From positions 1-64,000 of the IMG/VR virus record IMGVR_UViG_3300037448_000016: a stretch of DNA of 64,000 nt. One strand, 5' to 3'. Made by a program: the position numbers and the translations under genes. The number at the start of each line of letters is the position of its first letter. Position 1 is the stretch's first letter. The notes under the pieces are model-generated. The model was not told the DNA's origin. It searched no databases and worked only from the letters and a program-made list of their open reading frames with translations. Positions 2,360 to 41,234 of this stretch are shown piece by piece. The DNA comes from a virus (taxonomy: Duplodnaviria > Caudoviricetes).

Positions 2360-2542
2360 ATGGTGACGGACGACGAGATAGACCGCCTGAGGGAGGCATT
2401 CATGCAGGAAATGTCCGAGACTCACTGCGGGAACACCTGGTACGGCCCGAACGCGAAGGTGGCGCTGGCCGACCACATGGCAATGAACCATCTGCGCGGT
2501 CACGACGAGACACCGCCGCCGAAAATACCGGAGCGTAAGTGA
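2360..2542 (+). CDS. small hypothetical protein
   Basis: Directly after the promoter; GTGA overlap with the next gene. Confidence 0.6.
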   Translation: MVTDDEIDRLREAFMQEMSETHCGNTWYGPNAKVALADHMAMNHLRGHDETPPPKIPERK

Positions 2543-5338: not shown

Positions 5339-5784
5339 TCATCATCCCGGACGCCGCCGAAGCGCGGCTGACCTGCGACCACCAGGCGATGACCGTCCAC
5401 GTCAAGGACGTCAACACCGAAACGGTGTCGGACGGCTTCCACACGTTCGGAGAACTGTACGACCAGCGGGCGCACCTGCTCGCGCTGGCGACCGCCCTCA
5501 GCCAGATGACCACGTACCGGTCCAGGCGACACGATGACGGCACGATGTTCGGCGGAATGTTCTGGGTCGGCACCGAGTCACCCGGTCGCGACGACGGGCC
5601 CCGGCCGGTCACCTTCCACATCGGTCAGAAGCACTGGGCCCTGTTCGATCACGCCGTCACCCTGGACAAGGCCCCGCCGTTCGACGGCCACACCCCGGCC
5701 GACGTCATGCACTCCATCGACGAGTGGATCGCGTGGCTGGCCACCTGGAACATGACCCGCCGGGACGGGAAGGAGATCCAGTGA
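5335..5784 (+). CDS. conserved phage protein (SDGxHTFxELY...FDGHT motif)
   Basis: Motif recognised in translation; coupled start and stop. Confidence 0.7.
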   Translation: MIIIPDAAEARLTCDHQAMTVHVKDVNTETVSDGFHTFGELYDQRAHLLALATALSQMTTYRSRRHDDGTMFGGMFWVGTESPGRDDGPRPVTFHIGQKHWALFDHAVTLDKAPPFDGHTPADVMHSIDEWIAWLATWNMTRRDGKEIQ

Positions 5785-6302
5785 CCCTGCTGATCACGCT
5801 GGGCCTGCCCGGCTCCGGAAAGTCGACCGAGGCTCGCACGTGGCAGGCCAACGGCCGCCTCGGCGAGCCGATGCGGGTCTACCTGGACCGCGACAACCTG
5901 CGCGAAATGCTCTGGAACGAAACGGGTCTGCTCACGCAGCAGAAGGAGATGGCCGTCACCGTCGCTCAGCATTCCATGCTCCGCCAGTTCCTGGTCAACG
6001 GGTACGACGTGGTCATTGCCGACACCAACCTGCGCATCGACCGGCATCTCGTCCTGGTGGACATCGCTCACGGGCTGGGGCATTCCGTGCAGTACGCCGA
6101 CCTGCGCCACGTCCCGGTAGAGACGTGCATCGAGCGGGACGAGCAGCGCCGTAAAGGCGGCGGCCGGTACGTCGGCCCCGACGTCATCCGTGACATGGCG
6201 AAGCGTTACGGCCTGCCGGTACCGGAAGGCTACGGCATCTCACCGAGCGCCCTGATCAGCACCTTCGGAGTGTTCAACTCCACGGACGGGAAGGACTTCT
6301 GA
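5781..6302 (+). CDS. polynucleotide kinase-like P-loop kinase (AAA_33)
   Basis: GLPGSGKST, DRDNLR, VIADTN, CIERD..R motifs as in the T4 PNK kinase domain. Confidence 0.85.
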   Translation: MTLLITLGLPGSGKSTEARTWQANGRLGEPMRVYLDRDNLREMLWNETGLLTQQKEMAVTVAQHSMLRQFLVNGYDVVIADTNLRIDRHLVLVDIAHGLGHSVQYADLRHVPVETCIERDEQRRKGGGRYVGPDVIRDMAKRYGLPVPEGYGISPSALISTFGVFNSTDGKDF

Positions 6303-7662: not shown

Positions 7663-7926
7663 CTACTGGAGCCCTTGCAGATACTTGAAGACTGCCGGGT
7701 GGACCACCAGCACCCGGCCGGTCACCGCCGAGATGACGATCCGGTACCGGAGCACCTCATACGGCTGATCGAACGGCGTGGCCGCCTTCACGAAGTCCAG
7801 TTGGGGGACCTGTTGCTGCGGGATGTCCATGAAGATGGCATTGCTACGGATCATGATCGACTCACCGTCACGCACCCCCGGCTCAAGGATCGTCGCGGAA
7901 ATCGTCTGGGGCTTCAGAGCGGTCAT
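7663..7926 (-). CDS. hypothetical protein
   Basis: TGATG coupling, RBS AAGGAG. Confidence 0.65.
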   Translation of the reverse strand: MTALKPQTISATILEPGVRDGESIMIRSNAIFMDIPQQQVPQLDFVKAATPFDQPYEVLRYRIVISAVTGRVLVVHPAVFKYLQGLQ

Positions 7927-8750
7927 CAGTTCTCCTTACGGATTGACAGCCCGATGGCGGGCGGGAACGCTACGGCGAGCGCCTGAGTGAGGTCCGGCGC
8001 CATGCCCAGGTCGCCGTCCGAGGCCAGCACGATAGCCATGTGCTTGACGTGGCCGATCATCTCGCGCCGCAGCGCCCCGGCGCCGGGGGCTTCCCGGATG
8101 ATCTCGACGCGCCGGATCCGTTCTATCGGCAGCATGGTGGGCTTGTTCCGCTGACGGGCGTCCGGCGTGAGGCTCACCATGCTGCCGATGGTCTCCGTGA
8201 TCCGCGCCGTGGTGCTGGACAGTTCATCCTCAGGCTTCCGGACCCCCCGGTAGAAGATCTTGACGTAGTTGCCGGGGAACAGGGCGTACGGCGCTTCGGG
8301 TTCCTCCACGGCGGCGGCGACCTTGCTGAAAATGAGCCGGGCCTCCTGCACTTCCTTGACGCCGATGGCCCGCAGCGTCAGCCGCCAGGCTCGGGCCGTC
8401 GGCTGTGCCCCCCGTAGGCTGATGATCAGGTACGGCAGCGACAAGTCCCGGGCGGCTGAGATGTCGTCGTTGGACATCCGCGCCACGGTCGTCGGGTGGC
8501 TGTGGAACGTGGCCACCACGTCGAGCCCCGGCTTCTCCCGGTCGAGCGTGGTGTAGAACCTCAGAATCTCTTCGTCGTCCATCTTGTAGTGACCCACCGG
8601 ATCGGGGTGGACGTTCATCATCGGCACGACTTCCGTTCCGAGTCCTTCTGCCCCGACGATGAAACCGCAGGCTTCGCGCGGTTTGCTGTTCTGGCAGAAG
8701 GCGATCGCCTGACGCATCGCGTCGGCGGTCAGGTACAGCGGCTCGTTCAC
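7926..8750 (-). CDS. JAB/MPN+ metalloprotease with C-terminal extension
   Basis: REACG ... FHSHPTTVARMSNDD = E...HxH-x7-S-x2-D JAMM motif. Confidence 0.85.
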   Translation of the reverse strand: MNEPLYLTADAMRQAIAFCQNSKPREACGFIVGAEGLGTEVVPMMNVHPDPVGHYKMDDEEILRFYTTLDREKPGLDVVATFHSHPTTVARMSNDDISAARDLSLPYLIISLRGAQPTARAWRLTLRAIGVKEVQEARLIFSKVAAAVEEPEAPYALFPGNYVKIFYRGVRKPEDELSSTTARITETIGSMVSLTPDARQRNKPTMLPIERIRRVEIIREAPGAGALRREMIGHVKHMAIVLASDGDLGMAPDLTQALAVAFPPAIGLSIRKEN

Positions 8751-11644: not shown

Positions 11645-11673
11645 ACCCTACGCTCTGGTCAGTGCGTTGTCAA
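11645..11673 (-). promoter_or_regulatory. promoter TTGACA-N17-TAGGGT
   Basis: TTGACAACGCACTGACC, identical core to the promoter at 61478. Confidence 0.75.
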
Positions 11674-12245
11674 CTCTTTATCCAGCGCTGAGCGGGGGGA
11701 TTCTCGTAGTAGGCCACCACGGCGCGGGCCTTCTCCAGCGTGTTCACCACGGGCAGCACCGCGAGGTTGCACCCGTACTCCCCGGGGTCCAGCAGGCCAC
11801 GCACCTCGCCGGTGACGTGGTCGTGGTCAACGGCCAGCCGCTTCGATACGCTGCGGCGTCCACAGATCGCGCACCGGCCCCGCTGCTTCAGGAACAGGAT
11901 GTCGTAATCGTCCGGGGTGAACGGCCGTCCGTTGATAACGTACGTCCGGGTCAGCATGGTGGCCCAGGCCCGGCTGTTGGTGCAGACCAGGCAGCGAGCC
12001 GCGCCCTTGCCGCAGTCGCTCAGCCGGACGAAGGTCTGGCAGCCCGAGCACCAGCGGCGTCCTGGCGGCCACTGAGCGCCCTGAACGCGAGCCACGTGCA
12101 GTTCGACCGGGATGGCCCGGCGGCGCCAGTCGGCGCGAACCTCGCGCTCCTCCGGGGCCAGCCTGGACGTCTGGCACTCGTAGCACTTCTGGCCACCCGG
12201 CGCCCGGTCGGCGCGGTGACAGGTCGAGCAGGGTGGGCGGGCCAT
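11670..12245 (-). CDS. recombination endonuclease VII-like protein
   Basis: QRGRCAICG...LAVDHDHVTGEVRGLL...CN plus N-terminal Zn-finger CxxC pairs. Confidence 0.85.
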   Translation of the reverse strand: MARPPCSTCHRADRAPGGQKCYECQTSRLAPEEREVRADWRRRAIPVELHVARVQGAQWPPGRRWCSGCQTFVRLSDCGKGAARCLVCTNSRAWATMLTRTYVINGRPFTPDDYDILFLKQRGRCAICGRRSVSKRLAVDHDHVTGEVRGLLDPGEYGCNLAVLPVVNTLEKARAVVAYYENPPAQRWIKS

Positions 12246-12262
12246 GATTCTCCCCAACGAAA

Positions 12263-22225: not shown

Positions 22226-22493
22226 GTACGGGGCGCCGCCGATCGAGCGGCCCAACATGGAGAAGATCTGGGACAAGGCGCGGGCCGACGCGCGGGCGGA
22301 GGGTGCTCAGGAACGAGCCACCCTCCGCCGCGAACTCCATCACCAGACGCTGACCTGGCTGGAGACGACCTTCCCCAAGACGAAACTCACGGTCGCTCAG
22401 AAGGATTCTCTGGCTGAGGTGTTCGGGCTGGGTCCAGTACCAGCCGGACTGAGCCCGGACTCAGACCCAGCAGGGCAATCTCGGCTTCCGTAA
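22206..22493 (+). CDS. hypothetical protein
   Basis: RBS GGGAG; last gene of the rightward operon. Confidence 0.6.
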   Translation: MSVSHPEYGAPPIERPNMEKIWDKARADARAEGAQERATLRRELHHQTLTWLETTFPKTKLTVAQKDSLAEVFGLGPVPAGLSPDSDPAGQSRLP

Positions 22494-22716
22494 AGCCGTA
22501 CTCCCGCAGGAACTTGCGCGCCCTGCCGGACACCTGACGTTTCGGGCAGCCGCCCTCGTGGATCGCCACGAGGGCGGCTGTTTTTTCTGCCTGGGCCACG
22601 GCGAGCCGGGCCTTCGCTTTCAGCACGGACAGTGCCGCAGCGGACAGCCGTTCCATCGGGCTCTGCTCGATCGGCCGGGTCGCGAAGTGTGGCGGTGGGG
22701 GCATCTTGTCGACCAT
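22387..22716 (-). CDS. hypothetical helical protein, last gene of the conjugation cluster
   Basis: RBS TAGGAG before MVDKMPPP... Confidence 0.6.
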   Translation of the reverse strand: MVDKMPPPPHFATRPIEQSPMERLSAAALSVLKAKARLAVAQAEKTAALVAIHEGGCPKRQVSGRARKFLREYGFTEAEIALLGLSPGSVRLVLDPARTPQPENPSERP

Positions 22717-22724
22717 GGGTGCTC

Positions 22725-23678
22725 CTAGTGCTTCACTGAGACGTGGACGTGGTTGACGTGGTCGAGCGTGTCGCTGTGCCCACCGGAAGGGTGGGCGTAA
22801 GGGCGCCATTGCCCGGTCTCGCTGGTGAAGATCCGCTTGTTGAAGATGACGTAGTGCCCACCGACCTGGGCCAGGTTCGCGGCCCAGTAGTCCGCTATCT
22901 CCTGTCCGAGGTCGTGCTTGTCGGCGGATCGGTAGTCGCTGCCCAGCATGATGTCCACGGCGTTTCCGGTCGCGTGGTCGGACAGCGTGCCGGTGCCAGC
23001 GATCGTGCGGTAGGCGTACCCACCGATCGAGGAGATGCACGGCGGCGGGTTCGTGGCGCAGCCCCAGTCTTTCAGCGTCAGGGCTTTGATGTTCTCCGCG
23101 CGGGGGCGTAAGCCGTCGCCCCCTTGCGGTCCACTCCCCGGATCGGACAGCGCTCCGTCCGCCACGGCGTTGCAGTCCAGACCGAGCCCGTCGACCGCCT
23201 CCTGAGCCGCCCCGATGAACTGCCGGTACGATCCTGACCAGAACGTGACCCAGGGAGAGAAACCATGCGCATCGGTCCATATCTGGAAGGCCACCGAGGC
23301 ATTGAAGGCTGGATCGTGCCAGTCGCCGTGCGCCAGAAGGGCCGCGTGTACCGAGTTGATCTGCCACAGGCCGTAATCCGTGGACCCGTTGGTGTTCAGA
23401 TTCGTGATATTTGCGTTCCATCCGGACTCCGCGTGCGCAATGGCCACAGCAGTGACCAGGTTGTCTCCGCGAAATCCAGCGGCCAGCGCGGCTTTCGCTA
23501 CGGCAGCACCATCGCTGGCCGCGTGCCCCGTGATGGAGCACGCCTGGCTGGCCGGACCGCCGCCGAGAGCCAGCGATGGAACCGGCGGAGCGCCGCCGCC
23601 CGGCAGGCCCGTGAACAGGACCGCCAGGACGGCAAGGGCCGCCGCACCGGCCAGCGCTAGGCGCTTCAATCCGCCCAC
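22725..23678 (-). CDS. conjugation-associated cell-wall hydrolase: lytic transglycosylase plus C-terminal M15-like Zn peptidase domain
   Basis: Signal/TM; AIAHAESGWN..DYGLWQIN (SLT catalytic Glu); SDHATGNAVD...HVNHVHVS. Confidence 0.85.
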   Translation of the reverse strand: MGGLKRLALAGAAALAVLAVLFTGLPGGGAPPVPSLALGGGPASQACSITGHAASDGAAVAKAALAAGFRGDNLVTAVAIAHAESGWNANITNLNTNGSTDYGLWQINSVHAALLAHGDWHDPAFNASVAFQIWTDAHGFSPWVTFWSGSYRQFIGAAQEAVDGLGLDCNAVADGALSDPGSGPQGGDGLRPRAENIKALTLKDWGCATNPPPCISSIGGYAYRTIAGTGTLSDHATGNAVDIMLGSDYRSADKHDLGQEIADYWAANLAQVGGHYVIFNKRIFTSETGQWRPYAHPSGGHSDTLDHVNHVHVSVKH

Positions 23679-24142
23679 GTCAGGCCGGTGCAGAGCCAGT
23701 CGCCGGAGACGACGTCCATCGTGACGAGCAGCGCGCCCCGGTTGGTGGGTACGCTGATCTCCTGCTCGGTCGGGCCGTCTTTCGACACGGTGGCCGAGCC
23801 GGTGATCACGGCATCCTTGGGCGCCTCGTTCGTCGTCAGGTCTTCCAGCACCGGCGGGGAGTACAGGTCGTCGTTCATCACGCCCCGGAACCAGCCGTCA
23901 ACGGCGCTGATGGCGTCAGGGACGGCCGATCCGTGGGCGGGCCAGGTGAACGGGTCGGTGCCGGACGGCGATGGCGTCTGCGGGGTGTAGACGGGCGGCC
24001 GGGGCCCGGCCGTCGTGGTCGGGCTCGCTTCGGTCTTCGGGCCGGGCAGGTGGCTGACCGACCGGGCGATGTTGAACCCGGCCAGCACAGCGATCACGGT
24101 GAGCAGGGCGGCGATGGTGATTCTCTGGCGGTTGTTGTTCAT
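23666..24142 (-). CDS. single-TM protein, VirB8/TcpC-like candidate
   Basis: N-terminal TM, Pro-rich linker, small alpha/beta domain; position in the operon. Confidence 0.5.
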   Translation of the reverse strand: MNNNRQRITIAALLTVIAVLAGFNIARSVSHLPGPKTEASPTTTAGPRPPVYTPQTPSPSGTDPFTWPAHGSAVPDAISAVDGWFRGVMNDDLYSPPVLEDLTTNEAPKDAVITGSATVSKDGPTEQEISVPTNRGALLVTMDVVSGDWLCTGLTWAD

Positions 24143-26016
24143 GGCGTGCCTTCCGGGTCGCTGGTGCTGGTGTCGAACATCTGACGGTGCCTGTTCTGCG
24201 CGGCTTTACGCGCTTCCTCCCGGTCCTGCTCGGCGGCCATCCGGGCGTATTCCTCACGGACCACGTCCAGCGGCCGGGTGTAGAACTCGGTCTGCGTGTT
24301 GGCCGGTGGCGGTACCGGGTCCGGAACGAACTCCTCACCGGCCTGGGACGGCCGGTACAGCACCGCGCCGGGCGCCTCCGAGCCCTCGTCGTCGCTGGGC
24401 TCGGAGGCGGGTGCGGCCTGAGCCGAGGTGAGGTAAGACGTGACGTGGGCGTGGGCGTCACGGACCCGCTCCATCCGCTCCTCGTGCTCCTCCTCGCTCT
24501 CCCGCGCCCCGGCGGCGGCGCCCTTGCTGACGGCCCAGGCCATGGCGCCGATGCCGGTGACCTTGCCGACCACGTGCCGGACCAGCCTGCCGTGCCCGCG
24601 TATGCGACCGGCGCTCATCAGCGCGAGCGCTTTCCGGTCGGGCCGCAGCGCCGTCCAGAAAATGAAGACACCCAGGCCCATCAGCAGGAAAGACACCCAC
24701 GTCGGCCAGCCCGGCTGCATCACGGCCTCGGTGTAGACGGTATAGAGCCAGGTCCCGATCGCTGCGGTCACCACGATGCCGAGCGCCTGCGACGTGGTGT
24801 CGAGCAGCCCCTTGCCCGTCCGGTGCCCCTGCGGAGTGACCAGCCACGGCGAGGCGAGCAGCCAGACGATCCCGAGGATGGCCAGCAGCAGGATGCACAT
24901 GATCATCAGGAGGTTGGCGAAGATCCGGAAGAACGCCACCGTCAGCGCGAACGCCATCTCGTACAGCGCCGGGCCCGACCCGGCGGCCTGCTCACCGGTC
25001 AGCCACCGGTACGCCGCCGGGTCGGAATCTTTCACCTCACCAGCGATCTTCTTAAACGCATCCGACTTCTCTTTCAGCAGCGCCTGGCGATCCTTGATCC
25101 GTTCCTCGCGATCGGCCTTGTCCTTGGCGAGCGCCGGGTCGGTGGCCTGGGCTTGGGCCCAGGTGATCCGGGTGGCGGCCAGCAGCGCCGGGCCGTACGT
25201 GCGGGCGGTGTCAGACTCGTCGGTGCCGAACGTCCGCCGCAGCCAGCCGTCGTAGTGGATGGCCTCCATCGCCCGGTCGGTCGCGGCCTGGGCCGGGGAG
25301 GCGCCTTCGTACAGCGACGAGGTCACCGCACCGACTCCGGCCTGCGTGCTGGTCGCCACCTTCGTCGGGGCCATGATGACGAAACCACCGATCAGCAGGA
25401 CGATCATGACCCAGGTGATCTGGCTCATCACACCCGCCGTGTCGCCGCGCTTGGCGCGCCGGAACAGCATGACGGTGCAGAACAGCAGCCCCAGACCCAG
25501 GAACGGCAGCAGGATCCGCTTGGAGATCACCGTGATGGCCTTGTTCGCCAGCGTGCCGAGCAGTTTCGTCACCCAGGACGGATCGAACGCGAACCGGCTG
25601 GTGGCGTCCGCCGCCGCCGTGGAGGCTTGCCCGATGCCGACCAGTTTCCTGGCCAGCGACTCGTCACCCCAGGCGTTCAGGTGCTTGCCCCAGTTCGTCA
25701 CGTTGATCGAGCAGCCCAGGTCGTAGGTGAACGGCGACATTCCGGAGAAGCCGCTGGTCTCGTACAGGTGCGCGGGGTCGACCGGCTTCTCCCCGACGTC
25801 CGGCGGGTCACTGGGCCGGTCGGCGAACAGGCCGGGCACGCCGACGCTGGGCAACTGCGGTACGGGCGCGGACGGCTGGCAGACCCCCGGCAGGGCCTTC
25901 TCCACGGCGAGGGGCTCCGCCGCCTGGGCCCGGGAGCCGAGCGCGATGCTGAGCAGTACCGCGAGCAGCAGCACGCCGGAAGCGATCCGGCCGATGGTGG
26001 ACTTCAGGATCCTCAT
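24139..26016 (-). CDS. polytopic membrane protein, VirB6/TrbL/TcpH-like
   Basis: Signal peptide, multiple TM helices in two clusters, soluble tail; ATGA-coupled to VirB4. Confidence 0.75.
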   Translation of the reverse strand: MRILKSTIGRIASGVLLLAVLLSIALGSRAQAAEPLAVEKALPGVCQPSAPVPQLPSVGVPGLFADRPSDPPDVGEKPVDPAHLYETSGFSGMSPFTYDLGCSINVTNWGKHLNAWGDESLARKLVGIGQASTAAADATSRFAFDPSWVTKLLGTLANKAITVISKRILLPFLGLGLLFCTVMLFRRAKRGDTAGVMSQITWVMIVLLIGGFVIMAPTKVATSTQAGVGAVTSSLYEGASPAQAATDRAMEAIHYDGWLRRTFGTDESDTARTYGPALLAATRITWAQAQATDPALAKDKADREERIKDRQALLKEKSDAFKKIAGEVKDSDPAAYRWLTGEQAAGSGPALYEMAFALTVAFFRIFANLLMIMCILLLAILGIVWLLASPWLVTPQGHRTGKGLLDTTSQALGIVVTAAIGTWLYTVYTEAVMQPGWPTWVSFLLMGLGVFIFWTALRPDRKALALMSAGRIRGHGRLVRHVVGKVTGIGAMAWAVSKGAAAGARESEEEHEERMERVRDAHAHVTSYLTSAQAAPASEPSDDEGSEAPGAVLYRPSQAGEEFVPDPVPPPANTQTEFYTRPLDVVREEYARMAAEQDREEARKAAQNRHRQMFDTSTSDPEGTP

Positions 26017-28601
26017 ACCAGTTCCCCTTCGCGGTAGGCCCATCCTTCGGCACCGGCCGGGGTGGGGTTGGTCAGGACGACGTTACGCAGCGCCTGGTGA
26101 TAGTCGACGTCGACTTTCAGGCCGCCGACTCGCCCGTCCGCGTCCAGGTGGACGAACTCGCCGGGGCGTCGGGTCGAAAGTTCCATCAGCACACGGGCAT
26201 ACGACTTGTCCTCGATGTGGAGGATCGACAGCATCGCCTCGGCTGGTTCCGGGTTGGCCATCCGGCCGACGAACGCACCGGCCAGGAAGTTGCGCAGTTC
26301 GCCACCCATCATCTCGTCGGTGACGTTTTTCAGCCCGAGGTACACCGCGATGTTCCACTTGGAGTGGTCACGGCCCAGACGGTTCAGTTGCCCGCGCCCC
26401 GTTCCAGTGTCGAGCAGGTCCTCGGCTTCGTCGAAAATGCCGATGGCCCGTTCGTGGCGCGGCTTGCTGAACAGCAGCCGGTCCGTGTAGAGCGACGTCA
26501 AAAGGAGGATCGGGTCGGCGGCGTGCTCCGTCGCCGTCCAGTCGACCCGGTCCGAGGAGTCCGGCGCCCGGCGGATCCCGGGGGTCGAGATCACGGTCAG
26601 ACCGGAGTATGACGCCGGAGAAAAGTCGTCGGTCGACTTCTCCGGGGGGAACAGCAGGCGGAACAGCGGCATGTCGGCAGCGTCCCGCAGCGCGGCCGAG
26701 ACCTGGTCGGCGTGCTCGTCGCCCAGGGTCTCCAGCCCGTTGATCAGGTCCCACATCGTCGCGTACTGCGTCCAGCGGGTCAGGCCAGCCGCCCGGCGCA
26801 GCGCCCCGAAGGTGGCGGGGTGCCCGTACAGGTCGGGGGTCAGGCACCGCCGGGCCACATCGATCGTCAGGGCCCGGCGCTGGGCCAGCGCCTCGTCCTC
26901 CGACGTCGCCGAATCCGAGTCGTAGCGGATCAGGCTCGGCGGGTTCAAGATGCCGCGCTCGCCTTCGAGCAGGTTCAGCGAGCGGCTGATCCCCCGCAGT
27001 TCCGGCATCTGGCACAAGGCCATCATCGGGCCGGACGGGTCACGGGCGACCACCCGGCCACCGCGCCGGGCGCCGTGGTAGGCGATCGACTCCAGCAGCA
27101 CCGACTTGCCGCCGCCGAGGGTGGACACGACCGCCCACATGTTCTGCGAGCGGCCCAGTTCTCCCCGGCCTTCGGTGGCGTACCACGGGTCGTGCATGAC
27201 CGGGCGCCGGGCGGCCCCAAGCGTGAAGCCGATGTACGGGCCCCGGCCGTCCCCGATGGCGCTGGACACGTTCGGCATCCCGGCGGCCAGGTAGGACAGC
27301 CGGACCTGACGCTGGTAGCCGCTGGTGTCGTAGGACTCGCCGGGGACCGTTTCCCGCAGTCGCATCGCCTGGCCGTGCGCGGCGGTGAAATCCATCCGCA
27401 TCGCGCCGGAGCCGTACAGCCGCCGGAAGGCGTCGGCCCGCTCCTCACAGGACTGCTCGGCCGACTTGACCACCCGCCCGTCCCGCTCGCGCGTCTCCTC
27501 ACCGACGATGATCGCGTTGATCGTCCCGACGAACCGGGCCGCGTACCGGGGCTGGCCGGTGGTGACCTGGTCGCGGATCTCCTTGGCCAGCGAGATACCC
27601 CGCTCGGTGTACTCGGGCGGCAGTTCGTCGAACAGCCGGTAGGTGTCGTTGATGTTGATGGCCTTGTTCAGGTCGAGGGTGGCCTGCTTCGCCAGTTCCT
27701 CGCCGGAGCGGATCCGGCCCTGCAACGACCACTCCACGGCGATGGGGGAGCCGTCCGAGTCGACCAGACGCTCGGCGAACGCCTGCCACGGCTCCAGCCC
27801 GTTCTCCGGGTAGTGCAGGTCGGCCAGCCGCGCGGCGGTCAGCACCTGCACGTGCCGGGTCTGCTGCACGCCGTCACGCCATGCCGTGACCTCGACCGTG
27901 CGGTCGAAGCGTGACTCGGCCCACCGCACGTCGTTGGACAACTCGGGAAGGTCACGCACGTCCCAGCCGGTCTCGGCTGCACGCATGGGGGCGGGCATTC
28001 CGGGGGCCAGCGAGCGCTCGTGGATCCAGCCCTGCTCGCGCTCGGTCATGCGTACGGCACGCCACCCGGTCACGGCGTCATGCACACGCTTCTCCTCCGC
28101 CAGAAGCGTGCCGACCTCCGCCGACACGGGCGTGCCCGTGCGTGCGTGCGTGAGGATCTCGCCCCGCACGTCACGGCCGGGCTCCACCGTGCCGACCGTG
28201 AACCAGCGGAAGACGATCTTGTCTTCCATGCCGGACGCCCCGATCCGCCGCTGCATCCGCACCAGGTAGTCGTCCCAGGTCTCCCCGTCCACATCCGGTA
28301 CGGGAGCCGGGGTGCGCCGGTCCAGGTCGGCGGCCCAGGCCGCAACGGGGTGCGGGCGGTTCGTGACGCGCTCCCTGAAGTCCCGGCCCGCCAGTTCGGC
28401 CCAGACGTCGGCCGACGCCTCAATGAGCCCGCTACGGGCCTCCAGAGGCATGAAGTCCCAGCGGGACGCCCCGATCCGGTACCCGGCCCAGACCCGGCCG
28501 TCGCTGGCCACCACCAGATTGGAGACGATCTGCCGGACACCCGGGGCGATCTGAGCGTGCATCGGAGCCGAAAGGTCGGCTTTCGCCTTACGCCAGATCA
28601 T
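26013..28601 (-). CDS. virB4: VirB4-like conjugation ATPase (ConE/TcpF type)
   Basis: About 860 aa; Walker A STLGGGKS, VVARDPSG, LNLLEG..GILNP, Walker B GIFDEAE, GEFVHLDADGRVG. Confidence 0.8.
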   Translation of the reverse strand: MIWRKAKADLSAPMHAQIAPGVRQIVSNLVVASDGRVWAGYRIGASRWDFMPLEARSGLIEASADVWAELAGRDFRERVTNRPHPVAAWAADLDRRTPAPVPDVDGETWDDYLVRMQRRIGASGMEDKIVFRWFTVGTVEPGRDVRGEILTHARTGTPVSAEVGTLLAEEKRVHDAVTGWRAVRMTEREQGWIHERSLAPGMPAPMRAAETGWDVRDLPELSNDVRWAESRFDRTVEVTAWRDGVQQTRHVQVLTAARLADLHYPENGLEPWQAFAERLVDSDGSPIAVEWSLQGRIRSGEELAKQATLDLNKAININDTYRLFDELPPEYTERGISLAKEIRDQVTTGQPRYAARFVGTINAIIVGEETRERDGRVVKSAEQSCEERADAFRRLYGSGAMRMDFTAAHGQAMRLRETVPGESYDTSGYQRQVRLSYLAAGMPNVSSAIGDGRGPYIGFTLGAARRPVMHDPWYATEGRGELGRSQNMWAVVSTLGGGKSVLLESIAYHGARRGGRVVARDPSGPMMALCQMPELRGISRSLNLLEGERGILNPPSLIRYDSDSATSEDEALAQRRALTIDVARRCLTPDLYGHPATFGALRRAAGLTRWTQYATMWDLINGLETLGDEHADQVSAALRDAADMPLFRLLFPPEKSTDDFSPASYSGLTVISTPGIRRAPDSSDRVDWTATEHAADPILLLTSLYTDRLLFSKPRHERAIGIFDEAEDLLDTGTGRGQLNRLGRDHSKWNIAVYLGLKNVTDEMMGGELRNFLAGAFVGRMANPEPAEAMLSILHIEDKSYARVLMELSTRRPGEFVHLDADGRVGGLKVDVDYHQALRNVVLTNPTPAGAEGWAYREGELV

Positions 28602-29577
28602 CGATCTCCCCCTGCCGGACAGCGGCCTCTTCGGCAACGGACACCATGGCTTCGTACGCCTGACCGAACTCCGAGCGCTGCACGCAGAACACGCTCCCGG
28701 TCTCGGTGTTGAACACGACGACCGTGCCGTCTTCGAGCGGCACGCCGTTGGCCGTGACCGCTGCACGCACGAGCACCTCCGTGCCCGTGCCGTCCGCGTG
28801 CAGCACGCGCTTCATCTGCACGCGCGTGACCTGCACGCTGGCCCCCCGGTCACGCAACCACACCAGCACGTGCTGGCCGAGGCGCTCGTCGCGTGCAGTG
28901 GAGTCGAACAGCATCGCCTCCACCACGGGCCTGCGTTCCCTGTACTTGATCACCATGATGTCCTCCGGGTCGTAGTCGTTCAGGCTGGCCATGAAGTCGA
29001 GCAGGACCTGGTCGGCCTGCTCCGTGTCGAGAACGAGGGGAAGGACCTCCACGGCGAGGGGGGTCCGCAGCGGGGCGACACCGCGCCACTGCTCCGGCAG
29101 CGTGCGCAGCCAGAAGGTCACCGGCCGGTTCCCGTCGATGAACGGGCGGGCCTGGCGCACCAGCAGGAACGCGACCAGCACGGCCAGCGGCCCGGCGGCC
29201 CAGAACGGCGACGGGAAGATCCACTTCGCCGGATTCGGGACGATCACGAGGCCGAACAGCACCGCCACCCCAGCGATGACCACCTGGCCCCGCCTGCGGG
29301 CCGCTGCGGGCCTGGAGAAGGTCAGGCGGGCCAAGTGGTCCAGGGCCATCCCGTTGGCCGCCCAGCGGCCGAACAGGGCCGCGCTGAGGCCGACGATGCC
29401 GCCTACCGGGACCACCAGCCACAGCAGGGCGAACAGCACCGGCACCGACAGCAGGCCGATCGCCCACTCGGTGTACGTCGCGTCGAACGGCCAGCGCCAC
29501 GCACCGGTCGGCCCCAGCCACGGCGAGCGCAGATTGCGCGAGGCGTCCTCGCTGCGCTGGATCACCGCCACAACCAC
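28588..29577 (-). CDS. TcpE/VirB3-like membrane protein fused to a phage-type C-terminal domain
   Basis: N-terminal multi-TM part directly upstream of VirB4; C-terminal KYRERRPVVEA...F..AYE domain with an internal RBS; the start may be 29565. Confidence 0.6.
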   Translation of the reverse strand: MVVAVIQRSEDASRNLRSPWLGPTGAWRWPFDATYTEWAIGLLSVPVLFALLWLVVPVGGIVGLSAALFGRWAANGMALDHLARLTFSRPAAARRRGQVVIAGVAVLFGLVIVPNPAKWIFPSPFWAAGPLAVLVAFLLVRQARPFIDGNRPVTFWLRTLPEQWRGVAPLRTPLAVEVLPLVLDTEQADQVLLDFMASLNDYDPEDIMVIKYRERRPVVEAMLFDSTARDERLGQHVLVWLRDRGASVQVTRVQMKRVLHADGTGTEVLVRAAVTANGVPLEDGTVVVFNTETGSVFCVQRSEFGQAYEAMVSVAEEAAVRQGEIDDLA

Positions 29578-29657
29578 CGATCGAACGCCTCCACCGCGAC
29601 GAGCCCGGCCAGCACGGCACCGGCCAGCACCCCCGCCACGAACAGCACGGGCCTCAC
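29562..29657 (-). CDS. 31-aa single-TM peptide
   Basis: GTGA coupling; VRPVLFVAGVLAGAVLAGLVAV... Confidence 0.5.
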   Translation of the reverse strand: MRPVLFVAGVLAGAVLAGLVAVEAFDRWLWR

Positions 29658-30052
29658 TCCGGCTGCCCGTCGCGCGACGGCTCCGGGCCGAACCCGGCCG
29701 ACGTGAGCACCTGCTGGAAGGCGTCGAGCGCTGAACCGCTCGTGAGCGGCCGGTTGAGCGCTGGCGCCCCGATCCGGGCGAATCGGATCTCCAGGTTCAT
29801 GAGCCCGTGGCTGACGAGGTGGTCGACCTCCACGTTGGACAGCGTCCACACCGTGGCGATCGGCTCGGCGAAGAAATGCGCCTTCAGCGCGTCCGCGATC
29901 CCGTCCGGCAGGACGCTGGCCGGGACACGCCTGGGGAGGGACGGCCGGTCTCGTTCCGGGCCGCCCTCGCTGAACGTCAGGGTGACGTCGTCGATGTAGT
30001 TGCCTTCCACCTCCCGGCGGAAGTGGCTGAGGTGGTACTTCAGGTCGCTCAC
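29654..30052 (-). CDS. hypothetical protein
   Basis: GTGA coupling. Confidence 0.65.
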   Translation of the reverse strand: MSDLKYHLSHFRREVEGNYIDDVTLTFSEGGPERDRPSLPRRVPASVLPDGIADALKAHFFAEPIATVWTLSNVEVDHLVSHGLMNLEIRFARIGAPALNRPLTSGSALDAFQQVLTSAGFGPEPSRDGQPE

Positions 30053-30348
30053 TTGCTCAGGAAGGGGACGGACCAGCCGAGGAACGCGGCGGCGAAGGCC
30101 AGGCCGGTACCGGCGATCCCGATCGCGCCGGGGATGAGCGCGAGCAGGGTGGCGCCGACGATGTCGAAGATCTTGCGGGTGTTGCCCTTGCGGGCGTGCC
30201 CGGCGAGCGCTGCGAGCGTGATCCAGATCAGAACGAGGCTGATCCCGAGCAGCAGCAGCGCGCGGGCCTTGTTCAGAGTGCTGTTCGGCGTGAAATCGCC
30301 GGTGGCGGCCAACTCGGTGGCGGCCTGGAGAGCCTGCACGTGGGTCAT
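30049..30348 (-). CDS. small two-TM protein, VirB2/pilin-like
   Basis: 99 aa, two hydrophobic helices linked by ARKGN; first gene of the operon, RBS GAGAGGGG. Confidence 0.6.
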   Translation of the reverse strand: MTHVQALQAATELAATGDFTPNSTLNKARALLLLGISLVLIWITLAALAGHARKGNTRKIFDIVGATLLALIPGAIGIAGTGLAFAAAFLGWSVPFLSK

Positions 30349-30377
30349 GGCTTAACCCCTCTCGCTAGTGGGCTATC

Positions 30378-30408
30378 AACATAACACGTGTAGTCAGGCC
30401 GTTGTCAA
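30378..30408 (-). promoter_or_regulatory. promoter of the conjugation cluster, TTGACA-N19-TATGTT
   Basis: TTGACAACGGCCTGACT shares the phage-wide 11-bp TGAC repeat. Confidence 0.65.
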
Positions 30409-30446: not shown

Positions 30447-30690
30447 ACCAGGGATTTTTTGGCAGGGACAGGGAAATTCAAAACACAGGCTCTATGGGCA
30501 CATAGGAGCAAATAGTTTCTGGAGTCCCTAGAGACCCTCTGAGCACGAAAAAAATCCCTGGCAGGGAGAAAACTTCCCTAGCCGGACGGCGCCAGCGGCG
30601 CACCCGCTACGCCGCGGAGGCAGTCCGCTACCCACTGCGACGGCAGGGAGAAATGCGAAAGGGGCCAGGATCGAAAAATCCCTGGCCCCT
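30447..30690. repeat. cluster of CAGGGA repeats with A/T tracts in both orientations
   Basis: CAGGGATTTTTT, CAGGGAC, CAGGGAAA, AAAAAAATCCCTG, CAGGGAGAAAA, CAGGGAGAAAT, AAAAATCCCTG. Confidence 0.6.
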
Positions 30691-30691
30691 T
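30659..30691 (-). terminator. terminator of the late/lysis operon
   Basis: AAGGGGCCAGG/CCTGGCCCCTT stem just after the holin stop. Confidence 0.7.
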
Positions 30692-30703
30692 CGTCACGCT
30701 CGG

Positions 30704-31069
30704 TTACCGGGTTGCGGTGTGCCCGAGCACCCGAACGCCGTAGTGGTCAGCCACGTTGGCCACGGTGCCGACCTGGATGGCGCCGACGAACGCGATCAGG
30801 ATGGCCGCCCGCTCCGCAGGGGAGATCACGCCGTCCGTCCAGGCGTCCACTACGGCCAGCACGACCGCCGTGAAGATGGCGATGGCCTCCTTGGCGTTGG
30901 GCTGGGTGACGGTGTTGGCCTTGAAGTACACCGCCAGCGCGCCCAGGAACGTCACCACGGCGCCGATGACCACCGGCCGGGTAAAGTCCCCGGCGATGAG
31001 CGCGGCGGCCCCAGTGGAGCCCAGGACGGCGATGAGCGCGTACTGAATTGCTTTCGCTGCGTAATCCAT
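30704..31069 (-). CDS. holin
   Basis: 121 aa, four TM helices, immediately after the endolysin. Confidence 0.75.
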   Translation of the reverse strand: MDYAAKAIQYALIAVLGSTGAAALIAGDFTRPVVIGAVVTFLGALAVYFKANTVTQPNAKEAIAIFTAVVLAVVDAWTDGVISPAERAAILIAFVGAIQVGTVANVADHYGVRVLGHTATR

Positions 31070-31092: not shown

Positions 31093-31815
31093 TCAGCCGG
31101 TCCACTTGATGCCGAGGGCCTTGCAGGTGAGCGGGCCCACGGCGGGATTCCTGTGATCCGCCCGCAGCGCGGGGGATGGTGAGTGCAACTTGAACGACTG
31201 CACCGCAGCCGTCGTCTTCGGGCCGAAGTCGCCGTCTGCGGTCAGCCGTGCCTTGGCCACCGCGTTCAGCGTCTTCTGGAGCAGGATGGTCGAGCGGTGA
31301 TGGGACGTACCGGGCACCAGCACGAACGAGATCGACTTCGTCGGGGTCTTCGCTTCACGGGCCACGCGGATCTTCTTGGCCAGCGCGGCGACCGCTGCCT
31401 TACCCGCGTTGATCTCGAAGTGCATCTCGTCCTTGCGGGAGGTGTAGTGCCCGCCCCAGCGGACCACACCGTCGCAGAAGTCGAGGATCTTGTCGATCGC
31501 CGCGACCTGTTTCGTGGTGAACGTGCCCCGGGCCGCCAGCGGGTGCTGGGGGGCGTTCAGATCGATCGCCGTACCGCTGGCGTGGTTGGAGATGGCCGTG
31601 GAACTGCCCCGGATCGTGCGGGCCGCGTAGCCCCAGCAACCGGGGACGACCAGGCGCTCAACGGTCTTGTTGAACTCGTCCGCGACGTAGATCAGCACGG
31701 TGGCGACGTCGCCGGGCAGGATCGGCAACTTCACGGTGGTGGCGCCGGGCACGATGAAGGTGGCGATGTCGGCACGAGCGACGACCGGCCACCCGTTCTG
31801 GCTGTGATCGGTCAT
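31093..31815 (-). CDS. endolysin: M15-family peptidase plus PG-binding domain
   Basis: SQNGWP, WGYA.R.IRG, SNHASGTAID, RWGG, DEMHFEI; LQKTL...DGDFGPKT..AV..F. Confidence 0.9.
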   Translation of the reverse strand: MTDHSQNGWPVVARADIATFIVPGATTVKLPILPGDVATVLIYVADEFNKTVERLVVPGCWGYAARTIRGSSTAISNHASGTAIDLNAPQHPLAARGTFTTKQVAAIDKILDFCDGVVRWGGHYTSRKDEMHFEINAGKAAVAALAKKIRVAREAKTPTKSISFVLVPGTSHHRSTILLQKTLNAVAKARLTADGDFGPKTTAAVQSFKLHSPSPALRADHRNPAVGPLTCKALGIKWTG

Positions 31816-37685: not shown

Positions 37686-40600
37686 CTACCTCCGCTGAAT
37701 TGCGTTCAGCAACTTGTCTGCCAGTTGGTCACCAGCGCCCGAGATGGCCGCCTGCACCTGGACAGCGGAGGCGTTGTCGCCCACAGTGACCTGGACCGCT
37801 CCGGAGGCTACCTGAATGGTAGCCGCCCCGGCCCCGCTGGCTGGCCGGACGCTGCTCAGCCCGGCGTTGGCGATCTGATCGAACGCCGCCGAACCGTTCA
37901 ACTGGAGGGTCATCAGGTCAGCGATGTCCTTGGCCGCTGTGGCGATGGCCGGAGTCGAGTTGGCGATACCGGCGGCCAGGTCCTCACTGAAGTGCTGGCC
38001 ACGGATCTGCGTCCAGCCCTGCCCGGACAATGGGCCGGTCACGGCGGGCGAGCCTGGCAGCAGGTCGGTGATCTTTTTGACCGCGCCTTTCACGGCGTCC
38101 AGTGCCGAGCCCAGCCCGGACAGAATCCCCTTGGCGAAATCCTCCATCAGCGCCCGGCCTGCCGACAGGAAGCGGCCCGCCGAGCCGGTAATCGCTGAAA
38201 CCATCCGGCCGATCCCAGAGGAGACCGCCGAGACGGTACTGGAGAAGCCAGATTTCACGGCCGACACGATGTTGCTCATCCCGGTCCGCACCGCCGACAC
38301 CATGTTCGACCAACCGCTGCGGACAGCGCTGACGATGCTGGACAGAACGCTGGTGAACGTCGAGTGAATCGCATTCCAGGTCGAACTGATCACCGAGTGG
38401 ATCGCTGACATCGCGGCCGAGATGAGGCTGCGCATGGTGGACCAGGCCGAACTCACCCCGGCCACGATCGCGTTCAGCGCGGCGGTGAAAATCGCCCTGA
38501 TAGCGGCCCAGGCGCTCGACAGGATCGACTTCCAGGTGTCGGCCGCCGCCGTCAGCCCGGAAACGATGAGCGACCAGGCGGCTTTCAGCAGGGCGACGAT
38601 GGCATCCCACGTAGCCTTGCTCAGCGAGACGATCGTCTTCCAGGCCGCCGTCAACCCGGCCACGACCGCGTTCCATCCGGCGACGAAAATGGCGATCACT
38701 GCGGCCCAGAAAGCATTGATCCCGGCCTGGATCGCGTTGACCGCACCGGTGAAGATGCTCGTGATCAGGTTCCACGCCGCCGTGACGCCAGAAGTGATGA
38801 GAGACCAGGCGGTCTGTGCGGCGGTTTCCAGCCCGGCCCACATGGCGGCCCAGACCTGAAGCAGCACGGCGCCGAAGGCCACGACGATACCGATGACGAC
38901 CTCCACGGCGGCGCGCAGCAGGCCGAAGATGATCGTCCAGACGCCCTGGAGGATCAGGACGATCCCGTTCCACATCGCGGACCAGTCACCGGCCAGCAGG
39001 GCGCCGAAGAAGGTGATGATCCCCTCGATGATCAGGATCGCCCCGGAGATCACCGCCTTGATGGCGTCCCAGACGCCCTGAAGGATGATCAGCATCCCGG
39101 GCCAGATCGTGCTCCACAGGCCCGTGATGAACGCCAGCCCGGCCTGGAAGATGGCCGATATGACCGTCCAGGCGGCGGAGAAGAACGTGACGATGTTGTT
39201 CCAGGCGGCCTGGAAGGTGCCCGCGTTCTTGCTGGCCCAGTCCCGGATCTGGTTGAACTGCTCGATGACGAAGCCGACCACGGTGGCGACCACCGGGCCG
39301 AACGTGCTGCTCAGCCAGGCAGCGACCGCCCCCAGCCCGCCGACGATCGCGGTGAAGACGGTGGATGCGAACGCCAGGACCGCACCGGCGACCGCGTCCA
39401 CGACGGTACGGAACGTCTGAAAATGACCGTAGGCGTAGATAATCGCTGCCGCCAGGGCGACCACCGCGAGCACCACCAGGGTGATGGGCGAGGTGATGAG
39501 CGCCAGAGTCGAGGCGAACAGTCCGGCGCCGACTTCCGCCACACCGAACGCGACCGCGATCGACTCGACCAGGCCGATGACCGCCGTGATGGGGCCCACC
39601 ACGGCGAGGAACGCCGCCGCGAGCCCGGTCGACAGGAACGCTATGGCCACCAGGTGGGGCGCGATGTCGGACGCCACCTTGATGAGATCGAAGATCCGGG
39701 AGACGACGAAGACGATCCCCTCACCGACCGGCGCCAGCGCCCGGACGAGGGAGACGAACCCCTGGGCGAACGCCCCGATCAGCGCGAGCACGGCCGGGGT
39801 CTGGTCACGGATGTACTGCACGAAGTCCTGGAACGACGTGTTCGTGGCCAGGTTCGTGGCCCACTCGGCGAACCTGGCCGTCATAGCCTCCAGCCCGCCG
39901 GAGAACGAGACGGACAGCGGCATGAAGCCACTCACCAGACCGGCGAACGCCTTCAGAAGGTTGCCGATCGAGCGGCCCAGCGACTCCAGCATCGGCTTCG
40001 CCTGGCTGCCGACCATGCTGATGAACCCCTGCCAGAACGGGCCGGTCAGCGCGGACACCGCCGAGCGCTCCAGGTCCAGGAAGGCGTCGGCCGCGCCTTT
40101 CACGATCGGGGCCAGCGACGGCAGGAGCCCGCCGAGGCCGCGTAGCCCTTCCTGCGCGATCTGGAAGATCTCCGGCTGGAACTGGGCCGCGAACGTGTGC
40201 CAGGCCGCCTGAAACGCCTGGATCGACTTCACCATCTGCTGCTGCGCCGGGGTAAGGGAATCCATGATCCCCTTCAACTTGGTCAGCGCGGCGTCCCGTT
40301 GCGCGTCGGTGGTGGCCTGGTTGTACTGCAACTGCGCGGCCTTCATCTTGGTCAGCGCCTGAGTGACCGGCGAGAAGACCGACACTGCAACGGCGCCGAA
40401 CAGTCCGGCCGCCACGCCCGCGACGGTAAGTTCGGCGGCGAGCGCGGCGATCCCACCGACCGCGACCGCACCGATCGGGATCAGCGCCGGGGCCAGCAGC
40501 AGAACGGCGGCGACCAGCCCGCGCATGTTGCCTGACGCCCGGTTCGACGTCGTGCCGAGCCGGTCCATGGACTGCTCGGCCTCATCGATCGGCCCCCGGT

Positions 40601-41234
40601 TGATATCCACGTCGATGTCGATGCTTTCGGCCCGCACCCGATCGATCTCGGCCTGGAGACGGGCGATGGCGGCAGCCGCGTCGAAGTCGACGTCGATCAC
40701 CACGTCCTCTTCGCCGAGGCGATTGACTTCCTCGTCCAGCGCCGCGACATCAGCCTCAGCCGCCGCCGTGTCGACGTCGACCTCAACGTCCACATCGTTG
40801 AGTTCGTCGAGATTCTCACGTAGATCATCGATCTCCGCCGTGGCCTCGCCGGTGTCGACGTCGACCTCAACGGTCTCGTCCGACAGGTCGTTGAGTTCCT
40901 GCTCGATCTCATCGAGCGCGGCCCGCGCCTCATCGGTGTTCAGGTCGATGTCGACTTCTTCGTCCGACAGGTCGTTGAGTTCCTGCCGGAGTTCGTCCAG
41001 CGCCGCTTCGGCCGGTTCGATATCGGCGTCGACTTCCACGTCCTCGTTACCGAGGGCTTCGAGTTCGGCTTCCAGTTCGTCGATCGCGGCCTGGGCCTCG
41101 GACGTGTCCGCGTCGATGTCGACCTCGGGGTTCTGCCCCTCCAGTTCCCGGATCAGTGCGTCCAGGCGCAGGATCGTCTCAGTCGCGTCGTCTTTAGCGT
41201 TGATCTGAACGTCGAGTTCAGCGACTGTCGGCAT
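37686..41234 (-). CDS. tape measure protein
   Basis: 1182 aa, Ala-rich with W/F-periodic repeats; follows the tail chaperone. Confidence 0.92.
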   Translation of the reverse strand: MPTVAELDVQINAKDDATETILRLDALIRELEGQNPEVDIDADTSEAQAAIDELEAELEALGNEDVEVDADIEPAEAALDELRQELNDLSDEEVDIDLNTDEARAALDEIEQELNDLSDETVEVDVDTGEATAEIDDLRENLDELNDVDVEVDVDTAAAEADVAALDEEVNRLGEEDVVIDVDFDAAAAIARLQAEIDRVRAESIDIDVDINRGPIDEAEQSMDRLGTTSNRASGNMRGLVAAVLLLAPALIPIGAVAVGGIAALAAELTVAGVAAGLFGAVAVSVFSPVTQALTKMKAAQLQYNQATTDAQRDAALTKLKGIMDSLTPAQQQMVKSIQAFQAAWHTFAAQFQPEIFQIAQEGLRGLGGLLPSLAPIVKGAADAFLDLERSAVSALTGPFWQGFISMVGSQAKPMLESLGRSIGNLLKAFAGLVSGFMPLSVSFSGGLEAMTARFAEWATNLATNTSFQDFVQYIRDQTPAVLALIGAFAQGFVSLVRALAPVGEGIVFVVSRIFDLIKVASDIAPHLVAIAFLSTGLAAAFLAVVGPITAVIGLVESIAVAFGVAEVGAGLFASTLALITSPITLVVLAVVALAAAIIYAYGHFQTFRTVVDAVAGAVLAFASTVFTAIVGGLGAVAAWLSSTFGPVVATVVGFVIEQFNQIRDWASKNAGTFQAAWNNIVTFFSAAWTVISAIFQAGLAFITGLWSTIWPGMLIILQGVWDAIKAVISGAILIIEGIITFFGALLAGDWSAMWNGIVLILQGVWTIIFGLLRAAVEVVIGIVVAFGAVLLQVWAAMWAGLETAAQTAWSLITSGVTAAWNLITSIFTGAVNAIQAGINAFWAAVIAIFVAGWNAVVAGLTAAWKTIVSLSKATWDAIVALLKAAWSLIVSGLTAAADTWKSILSSAWAAIRAIFTAALNAIVAGVSSAWSTMRSLISAAMSAIHSVISSTWNAIHSTFTSVLSSIVSAVRSGWSNMVSAVRTGMSNIVSAVKSGFSSTVSAVSSGIGRMVSAITGSAGRFLSAGRALMEDFAKGILSGLGSALDAVKGAVKKITDLLPGSPAVTGPLSGQGWTQIRGQHFSEDLAAGIANSTPAIATAAKDIADLMTLQLNGSAAFDQIANAGLSSVRPASGAGAATIQVASGAVQVTVGDNASAVQVQAAISGAGDQLADKLLNAIQRR

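Follow-up and report, generated by a model that had tools for sequence, protein, structure and literature searches.

Why would a tailed phage carry the genes of a conjugation-type channel? The question is raised by an 8-kb stretch (positions 22387-30408) of a 77,934-bp IMG/VR virus genome, bases 1-64000 of which form the window analysed here (coordinates are those of the window unless the genome is named). This stretch is an intact minimal monoderm-type channel cassette of a type IV secretion system (T4SS). Phages and conjugative elements are treated as separate transfer routes, with receptors as the barrier in the one case and cell contact in the other. The cassette suggests that this phage may pass DNA or proteins directly between cells, besides releasing virions. 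A first-pass annotation made from the sequence alone had already placed a conjugation operon inside a complete tailed-phage genome; intact head, tail and lysis modules were confirmed, in a record for which CheckV gives a completeness of 100%.

The T4SS channel cassette

The identification starts from a two-domain ATPase of 862 aa encoded at 26013-28601 on the minus strand, as are all genes of the cassette. It matches the Pfam family AAA_10 at 2.1e-14, and both its Walker A motif (GGGKS) and its Walker B motif (DEAE) are intact, with catalytic residues that are invariant across 18 homologues. The nearest NCBIfam model is that of the pCW3 conjugal transfer ATPase TcpF (3e-12), which is matched with 45 bits against a cut-off of 1100. 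A sequence profile of the ATPase searched against the PDB retrieved the P-loop only, and a fold-level search was hence used. The AlphaFold2 (AF2) model, built from 18 homologues with a predicted local distance difference test (pLDDT) of 80.7, matched full-length R388 TrwK/VirB4 (8rtd, 7o43) in Foldseek with an E-value of 1.6e-18 and TM-scores of 0.53-0.61 over ~850 columns; the next matches, DndH, HerA and TrwB, align to the C-terminal half only. On the evidence of the modelled fold the protein is a VirB4, as first annotated, and the full-length match excludes a placement of the ATPase outside VirB4.

The gene after VirB4 encodes a VirB6-like polytopic protein of 634 aa (24139-26043), predicted to have a signal peptide, ~5 transmembrane (TM) helices and an acidic tail; translation probably begins at the ATG at 26016, in overlap with the stop codon of VirB4. 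Its topology agrees with VirB6, and so does its place behind VirB4. Direct searches of Pfam and NCBIfam gave no match for this protein. Comparison with a protein atlas returned a feature score of 0.96 and a structural TM-score of 0.71 to clusters of actinobacterial proteins, of whose members only 11-25% carry PF04610 TrbL, and the protein is homologous to the open reading frame (ORF) after VirB4 in cassettes from plasmids and from a metagenome-assembled genome (MAG), with E-values of 1e-20 to 4e-46.

It is followed by a bitopic protein of 158 aa (23666-24142) that consists of an N-terminal TM helix, a Pro-rich linker and an extracytoplasmic NTF2-like domain, the latter modelled by AF2 with a pLDDT >90. 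The top rows of a VIA-align search with this protein were DotI (Z 9.5), R64 TraM (9.4) and an IcmL-like protein (8.9), with pIP501 TraM (8.4), PrgL (8.2) and VirB8 (8.2) further down, and generic NTF2 folds interleave with these VirB8-family rows within ~1 Z unit. A profile search of the PDB gave no match. Alignment by hhalign with the 'YbjP/YqhG' protein found at the same position in a Streptomyces plasmid cassette reached a probability of 93% (E 2.6e-7). The models therefore support a VirB8-like assignment as far as fold and architecture are concerned, but no further.

A bifunctional cell-wall hydrolase of 317 aa (22725-23678) combines an SLT_3 domain with a C-terminal LAS-type metallopeptidase-like domain. 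Pfam matches were obtained for SLT_3 (8.8e-20) and SLT (2.8e-7), an N-terminal signal or anchor is present, and the motifs AESG and HxxxD...HxH (the latter of peptidase type) could be read directly, so that the protein, secreted or anchored, may be regarded as an analogue of VirB1, CwlT and TcpG. The SLT domain is conserved in 8 relatives, and the second domain (22725-23200) is swapped in some; among the loci compared, the LAS-peptidase part was found only in the window, L002, L005, L006 and L012, and it was swapped in the comparison with L007-L010. Hydrolases that end the non-phage cassettes are of the C40, CHAP, VanY or M23 type. With VirB4, the VirB6-like protein, the VirB8-like fold and the hydrolase in place, the Gram-positive-type T4SS channel gene set recognised at first sight proved to be genuine.

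The remaining genes are less easily named. Directly upstream of VirB4 lies the gene for a 329-aa protein with 3 TM helices and a soluble domain (28588-29577), the alignment of which reveals a conserved 3-TM N-terminus of ~165 aa and a variable soluble C-terminus. The N-terminal part is kept in all nine phage relatives and is weakly homologous in the non-phage cassettes L015 and L016. In the protein atlas this protein reached a feature score of 0.79, with the PrgI and TcpE clusters at 0.76-0.78, below the threshold, and its profile retrieved only chance matches to G-protein-coupled receptors from the PDB. A complex between this protein and the N-terminal domain of VirB4 was predicted weakly, with a median score of 0.59 against 0.00 for the best control, a mark attained by 58 of 80 complexes of solved structure and by 2 of 110 mismatched pairs, scores <=0.60 being more often wrong than right; at least 67% of the contacts agreed and the pLDDT of the partner was at least 59. 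Based on these predictions, the 3-TM protein is a candidate VirB3/TcpE/PrgI-like partner of VirB4, and the earlier label 'TcpE-like' may be kept as a lead, weaker than it had been stated.

The first gene of the operon (30049-30348) encodes a 99-aa protein with 2 predicted TM helices, homologues of which occupy the same position in 6 related phage contigs. Its only Pfam match was the sub-threshold TMEM_230_134 (0.0028), and NCBIfam gave none. It appears to hold a VirB2/TcpD-like position, with its family not established; the name 'pilin-like' agrees with the 2-TM topology and has nothing beyond that topology to support it, which leaves it a lead. The next gene, for a soluble protein of 132 aa (29654-30052), is a variable insert outside the conserved core, for which no homologue at any related locus and no family match were found. 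The 'TM peptide' of the first-pass annotation corresponds to a putative micro-ORF of 31 aa (29562-29657), the GTG of which shares bases with the stop codon upstream; relatives do not conserve it, and it was discarded. At the other end, the ORF 22387-23541 that had been proposed as the last gene runs out of frame over the hydrolase gene for most of its length. Only its last 108 codons (22387-22713) stand as a plausible small conserved gene, the last of the unit, which follows the hydrolase gene in 5 relatives; its 108-aa product has no family match.

Inheritance and transcription in the phage lineage

A cassette of this kind in a virus assembly could also be an assembly chimera, a nested fragment of either a plasmid or an integrative and conjugative element (ICE), or a decaying passenger devoid of function. 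Its G+C content (0.69-0.71, slightly above the ~66% of the genome) and the presence of homologues on plasmids and in a bacterial MAG would agree with such an origin; yet G+C values of 0.69-0.71 are also found in other regions of the same phage genome, and the distribution of the cassette tells strongly in the other direction. Proteins 40-64% identical to the phage VirB4 come from metagenome assemblies only, several of them on contigs of 74-83 kb. The conserved core, which comprises all genes except the 132-aa ORF, is largely complete and in the same order in nine related contigs, which are independent and from different samples, and it adjoins homologous tail genes in eight of these. The synteny that the first-pass annotation had suggested looking for in other phage genomes was thus found.

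Divergence of the cassette follows that of the virion genes. Among the related contigs, VirB4 identity ranges from 41 to 71% and that of the adjacent 1009-aa tail protein from 52 to 76%, with paired values (VirB4/tail protein) of 71/76, 57/58, 52/55 and 41/52%. In a tree of 136 VirB4 relatives, all ten phage VirB4s fall within one clade of twelve; the nearest outgroup VirB4s lie on contigs too short to separate a phage from a plasmid context. The reading frames are intact in addition to the invariant catalytic residues. Among 50,697 phage records, megablast with the 8 kb and tblastn with VirB4 gave only one weak match, to a 6-kb Enterococcus fragment, and no cultured phage relative with the cassette was present.

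Searches for the machinery of insertion were likewise negative. Neither Phage_integrase nor Resolvase was matched in the genome or in 4 relatives, and no att-like direct repeats beyond short chance matches flank the cassette, which bears out the absence of a tyrosine or serine recombinase and of an att duplication noted at first. A nested ICE was rejected on these two grounds. Because of the synteny in nine independent contigs, the tail-like divergence, the single VirB4 clade and the lack of recombinases and flanking repeats, a chimera, a nested ICE and a recent insertion appear to be excluded, and an origin as a foreign or functionless fragment is highly improbable. As far as comparison of the sequences can tell, the cassette has been inherited vertically as a core module within a clade of tailed actinobacterial phages of ~70-83 kb.

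The transcription signals also belong to the phage. As previously noted, the operon lies downstream of the holin-like gene and a terminator. Two terminator-like hairpins with T-runs were found on the minus strand between that gene and the operon promoter: the first (~30660-30695) was read directly as GGGGCCAGGGAT...ATCCTGGCCCC followed by TTTCG, and the second (30555-30567) came from a terminator scan. Downstream of these hairpins, the minus-strand promoter TTGACAACGGCCTGAC...TATGTT (30378-30408) consists of a TTGACA -35 element with an extended AC-N4-TGAC, followed by the -10 element TATGTT, and is located ~30 nt upstream of the first ATG. A strict sigma-70 scan called no promoter in the operon region. 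The motif TTGACAACNNNNTGAC, allowing <=1 mismatch, occurs 15 times in the window as against 0.21 expected, so that the claim of a shared phage promoter motif, also written as TTGACAAC-N4-TGAC, was upheld. A relaxed pattern yielded 25 sites genome-wide, in all of which a TAnnnT -10 element stands at a fixed distance of 18-19 nt behind the -35; they are located at 524, 1458, 2328, 11673, 16422, 30408, 57760, 57920, 59271 and within 60146-63406, with ten more beyond 64 kb. The closest relative (L005) retains the motif upstream of its homologue of the first cassette gene, a further point against a foreign fragment.

Going by this sequence motif, transcription of the cassette starts at one of the promoters of the phage itself, of a type that is general for this phage and not early-specific, since sites 57760 and 57920 stand ahead of the genes for packaging and structure. 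Downstream of it lie seven minus-strand genes that overlap or abut, and the overlaps of 4-31 nt at their junctions fit translational coupling, as had been assumed. Many of the motif sites are positioned 6-10 nt before a ATGACGACGACG-type start, a spacing which suggests that the mRNAs are leaderless or very short-leadered at many of them. Some promoter sites are palindromic (for example, 1439-1472), and the extended element may for this reason also serve as an operator.

The HNH-FtsK translocase and the possible cargo of the channel

What such a channel might move is indicated first by a second gene. The FtsK-like gene that had been noticed at 2539 is confirmed (2539-4161, plus strand) and encodes an FtsK/SpoIIIE-type translocase of 540 aa with the Walker A motif GETNSGKT and, in addition, an N-terminal HNH domain (Pfam FtsK_SpoIIIE 2.7e-13, HNH 4.7e-5). 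Two weakly hydrophobic segments are present around residues 95-146, and the phage promoter motif precedes the gene at 2328-2343. Among PDB sequences it matches the FtsK motor (3.5e-10) and 6o1z ('DNA translocase coupling protein', 2.9e-6), which we take to be pCW3 TcpA. The protein is full-length in all four related phage genomes searched (37-47% identity) and shares 29-30% identity with the FtsK genes that adjoin the VirB4 cassette in plasmids of Streptomyces and Gordonia. Judged by these similarities, HNH-FtsK is a candidate coupling protein or DNA motor.

The plasmid loci are instructive in themselves. The plasmid of Streptomyces sp. 891-h (NZ_CP050694) carries FtsK, ParA, two small ORFs, VirB4, an 848-aa ORF, an NTF2-like protein and a C40 peptidase; in pSM17C (NZ_CP029341) a gene annotated as a member of the T4SS coupling-protein family is directly upstream of the cassette, and in Gordonia pSMJS1.2 (NZ_CP123383) FtsK adjoins it. 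Another copy (L016) is located in the last ~20 kb of the 3.75-Mb contig CAWIXB010000001.1 of an Actinomycetota MAG, with a VirB4 of 39% identity and a CHAP hydrolase, among genes for TetR, RibD_C, luciferase-like and hemerythrin proteins, and no FtsK or phage gene was seen in the flank available. As in the phage, these cassettes comprise, in the same order, two small membrane ORFs, VirB4, a polytopic protein of 600-850 aa, an anchored NTF2-like protein of ~170 aa and a hydrolase. Their VirB4s are 25-39% identical to that of the phage over >90% of the length, the VirB6-like and NTF2-like proteins are homologous as described above, and the plasmid partner gene of FtsK type is homologous to the phage FtsK. 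The differences lie in the setting: the plasmid cassettes adjoin an ATPase of FtsK or VirD4 type, and their replicons carry ParA but no virion genes, whereas the phage cassette follows lysis genes and its FtsK is fused to HNH and lies ~20 kb away instead of directly beside the cassette. The hydrolases differ as well (SLT plus LAS peptidase in the phage, C40 or CHAP in the plasmids and the MAG). MOB-suite typed all three plasmids as non-mobilizable, so that cassettes of this type usually come without a recognisable relaxase. No experimental test of these plasmid cassettes was found in the literature.

Part lists of the mating-pair formation class MPF-FATA are those of pCW3 (TcpC-TcpH with the FtsK-like TcpA), Tn916 (Orf13-Orf21) and ICEBs1 (ConB-ConG/CwlT). 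The phage cassette shares with them the parts and their local order, namely a small TM protein, VirB4, a VirB6-like protein, a VirB8-like NTF2 protein and a bifunctional hydrolase, and the coupling ATPase of that class is of the FtsK class, like the candidate HNH-FtsK. In contrast, no relaxase or origin of transfer (oriT) was recognised in the phage, its VirB4 stays far below the TcpF cut-off, similarity to the systems of Firmicutes does not extend beyond the level of the fold, and the carrier is a virion-forming genome without an integrase and not an ICE or plasmid. The match to Tn916, ICEBs1 and pCW3 that had been claimed thus holds for the T4SS part list, but the closest relatives are uncharacterised actinobacterial plasmid cassettes and not those systems specifically.

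Based on these relationships, it can be proposed that phage DNA is exported in a contact-dependent manner, with a T4SS channel built by the phage as the passage and HNH-FtsK as the motor, and we regard this as quite possible, if somewhat short of an even chance. In an infected cell, the hydrolase would open the peptidoglycan locally, and VirB4 together with the 3-TM, VirB6-like and VirB8-like proteins would assemble a channel that spans the envelope. HNH-FtsK would then feed phage DNA through this channel into a cell in contact with the first or into a neighbouring hyphal compartment. The exported DNA would probably be double-stranded, as in transfer of the TraB/FtsK type, and infection could spread without virions or receptors alongside the normal release of virions. 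TraB/Spd conjugation of double-stranded DNA in Streptomyces provides the concept of a relaxase-independent actinobacterial transfer with an FtsK-like motor, and a missing relaxase would be explained if the transferred DNA is double-stranded. In SLP2, too, transfer needs co-transcribed genes for membrane proteins, an ATPase and a hydrolase (PMC2782261, PMC12857230). The occurrence of one promoter type before both the cassette and the FtsK gene favours this proposal. So does an ArdC-N-like gene (287 aa, domain match 4.9e-9) on the minus strand at genome position 72668-73531, outside the window (L003:14668-15531), which is preceded by the phage promoter motif at 73567; the ArdC N-terminal domain is an anti-restriction, ssDNA-binding domain typical of conjugative plasmids and elements.

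Several observations weigh against DNA export. As first reported, no relaxase was found: a six-frame search of the whole 77.9-kb genome gave no match to TrwC, Relaxase or Rep_trans, Mob_Pre, MobA_MobL and unconventional relaxases not being searched. No oriT was recognised in the genome, nor was any clt-like array of 8-bp repeats, only G+C-rich 8-mers in coding sequence being present and nothing convincing near FtsK. The VirB3, VirB6 and VirB8 assignments are based on fold or feature similarity and not on family-level sequence matches. The FtsK gene is unlinked to the cassette, and FtsK-like ATPase domains also occur in phages without any T4SS. The donor cell would furthermore be short-lived, because the phage looks virulent in the apparent lack of integrase and partition genes: ParA (AAA_31) gave no match and the only ParB_N match was sub-threshold and out of frame, other partition and replication families not being searched. 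Finally, T4SSs also export proteins.

Export of proteins is the main rival to export of DNA. The channel would deliver effectors into neighbouring cells, so as to kill competitors or to prime or disarm hosts, or place them on the cell surface, and HNH-FtsK would serve some other purpose. That some T4SSs secrete proteins exclusively is well established, and the presence of the channel half together with the lack of a relaxase match, as well as the separate location of FtsK, would agree with this explanation; among the variable parts of the operon, the 132-aa ORF and the C-terminal part of the 3-TM protein might serve as cargo or as adaptors. However, no protein was recognised as a possible effector carrying a known secretion signal, the closest cassettes lie directly beside DNA-translocase or coupling genes on plasmids, and HNH-FtsK is retained with the cassette in every relative examined. 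On balance we consider protein export unlikely, though a serious rival.

The cassette may instead act within the infected cell or mycelium, with no separate recipient, in the passage or partition of DNA across septa or into spores, in the completion of genome entry, in the exclusion of superinfecting phages or plasmids, or in breaching the envelope at lysis. Precedents exist for such functions. The chromosomal cmdABCDEF genes of S. coelicolor, for the VirB4-like CmdB and five membrane proteins, affect chromosome segregation and sporulation and not plasmid transfer (PMC2782261). A looser precedent is the putative gp31-gp32 translocon of the virulent siphovirus SPP1, in which gp32 is an early, non-essential ATPase of ~836 aa that is TrwB/VirB4/FtsK-like by HHpred and is encoded beside small membrane proteins (PMC6316719). 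The chromosomal MAG cassette with its 39% identical VirB4, situated among ordinary metabolic genes, points the same way.

Homology tests, in which the SLP2 ATPase served as a stand-in for CmdB, nevertheless detected no homology of these ATPases to the VirB4 of the phage beyond the P-loop. The SLP2 transfer cassette was not supported as closest relative (no tblastn match of VirB4; hhalign probability 15%, P-loop only), the SLP2 FtsK being a weak match to the phage FtsK (22% identity, 2e-5), and gp32 was rejected as a VirB4 homologue with an hhalign probability of 0.3%. SPP1 is also without VirB6-like, VirB8-like and hydrolase partners, and its gp33 is a beta-helix protein. An extracytoplasmic hydrolase along with VirB8-like and VirB6-like proteins points to an outward-facing channel, and no PADLOC defence model matches the cassette beyond generic P-loop similarity. 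A role confined to the infected cell or mycelium is accordingly judged fairly improbable, though it too is a rival to be taken seriously. The reading of the cassette as a defence system was rejected, PADLOC having reported only generic FtsK/P-loop and HNH similarity.

Genomic setting and implications

Virion and lysis genes were identified by PHROG and Pfam scans. The structural arm, on the minus strand, includes the portal, prohead protease, scaffold and head-tail adaptors, the major capsid protein (49234-50262), the tape measure (37686-41234), distal tail proteins and a collar fibre. The lysis genes, on the same strand, encode an M15 endolysin (31093-31815) and the 4-TM holin-like protein (30704-31069). 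The large terminase (terL, 53844-55526, minus strand) is a single ORF of 560 aa, while the closest Arthrobacter phage relatives are annotated with two genes, one for the ATPase and one for the nuclease domain; accordingly, it matches two separate PHROGs, 19179 and 21277. The other arms encode a PrimPol-D5 helicase, a DEAD helicase, endonuclease VII (11670-12257, minus strand), a Prok-JAB deubiquitinase-like protein (7926-8750, minus strand), an AAA_33 or zeta-toxin-like kinase (5724-6302, plus strand) and the ArdC-N-like protein; several ORFs of 240-390 aa in the genome are without a family match.

The ends of the record carry a repeat of exactly 127 bp (window 1-127, genome 77808-77934). As 127 is a common maximum k-mer length of assemblers, this 'direct terminal repeat' is probably an assembler overlap that marks a circular assembly, and not a true virion end. 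The large terminase is nearest to those of Arthrobacter phages (55% identity) and all its remaining matches are actinophages, from which the host is predicted to be an actinobacterium, that is, a high-GC Gram-positive bacterium. A scan of genome collections returned one relative only, in a MAG chromosome, and therefore no host can be assigned from it.

A phage-plasmid was rejected, as virion genes are present but neither ParA nor an integrase was found in searches that covered AAA_31, ParB_N, Phage_integrase and Resolvase, and the replication genes are of the PrimPol-D5 type. The E. coli element p1002-1, one of the 'conjugative phage-plasmids' and described as a fusion of a conjugative plasmid and a phage-plasmid, combines virion and conjugation genes on one replicon (bioRxiv 10.1101/2025.03.14.643293). 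It is reported to result from a recent fusion, whereas the phage cassette appears to be an old, lineage-wide core module in a genome in which no plasmid maintenance genes were found. No description of this phage lineage was found in the literature.

The genes for an intact channel and for a plasmid-type DNA motor have stayed in the core set while the proteins diverged by ~50%, which implies that the virus itself gains from the channel. That the lineage, apparently virulent, has two routes of spread, by virions and by a relaxase-independent, FtsK-driven passage of double-stranded DNA through a T4SS, is a rather doubtful proposition at present; if true, a conjugation-like second route would bypass receptor-based resistance. 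With 340 protein clusters of related VirB4s at E <1e-30, the finding points to a widespread, unstudied actinobacterial VirB4 cassette. Should the channel export proteins, it would represent a phage-encoded contact-dependent secretion system. Should it move phage DNA, current views of host range, receptor-based resistance and plaque spread in mycelial or aggregated actinobacteria would need revision, as would the classification of viromes and plasmidomes.

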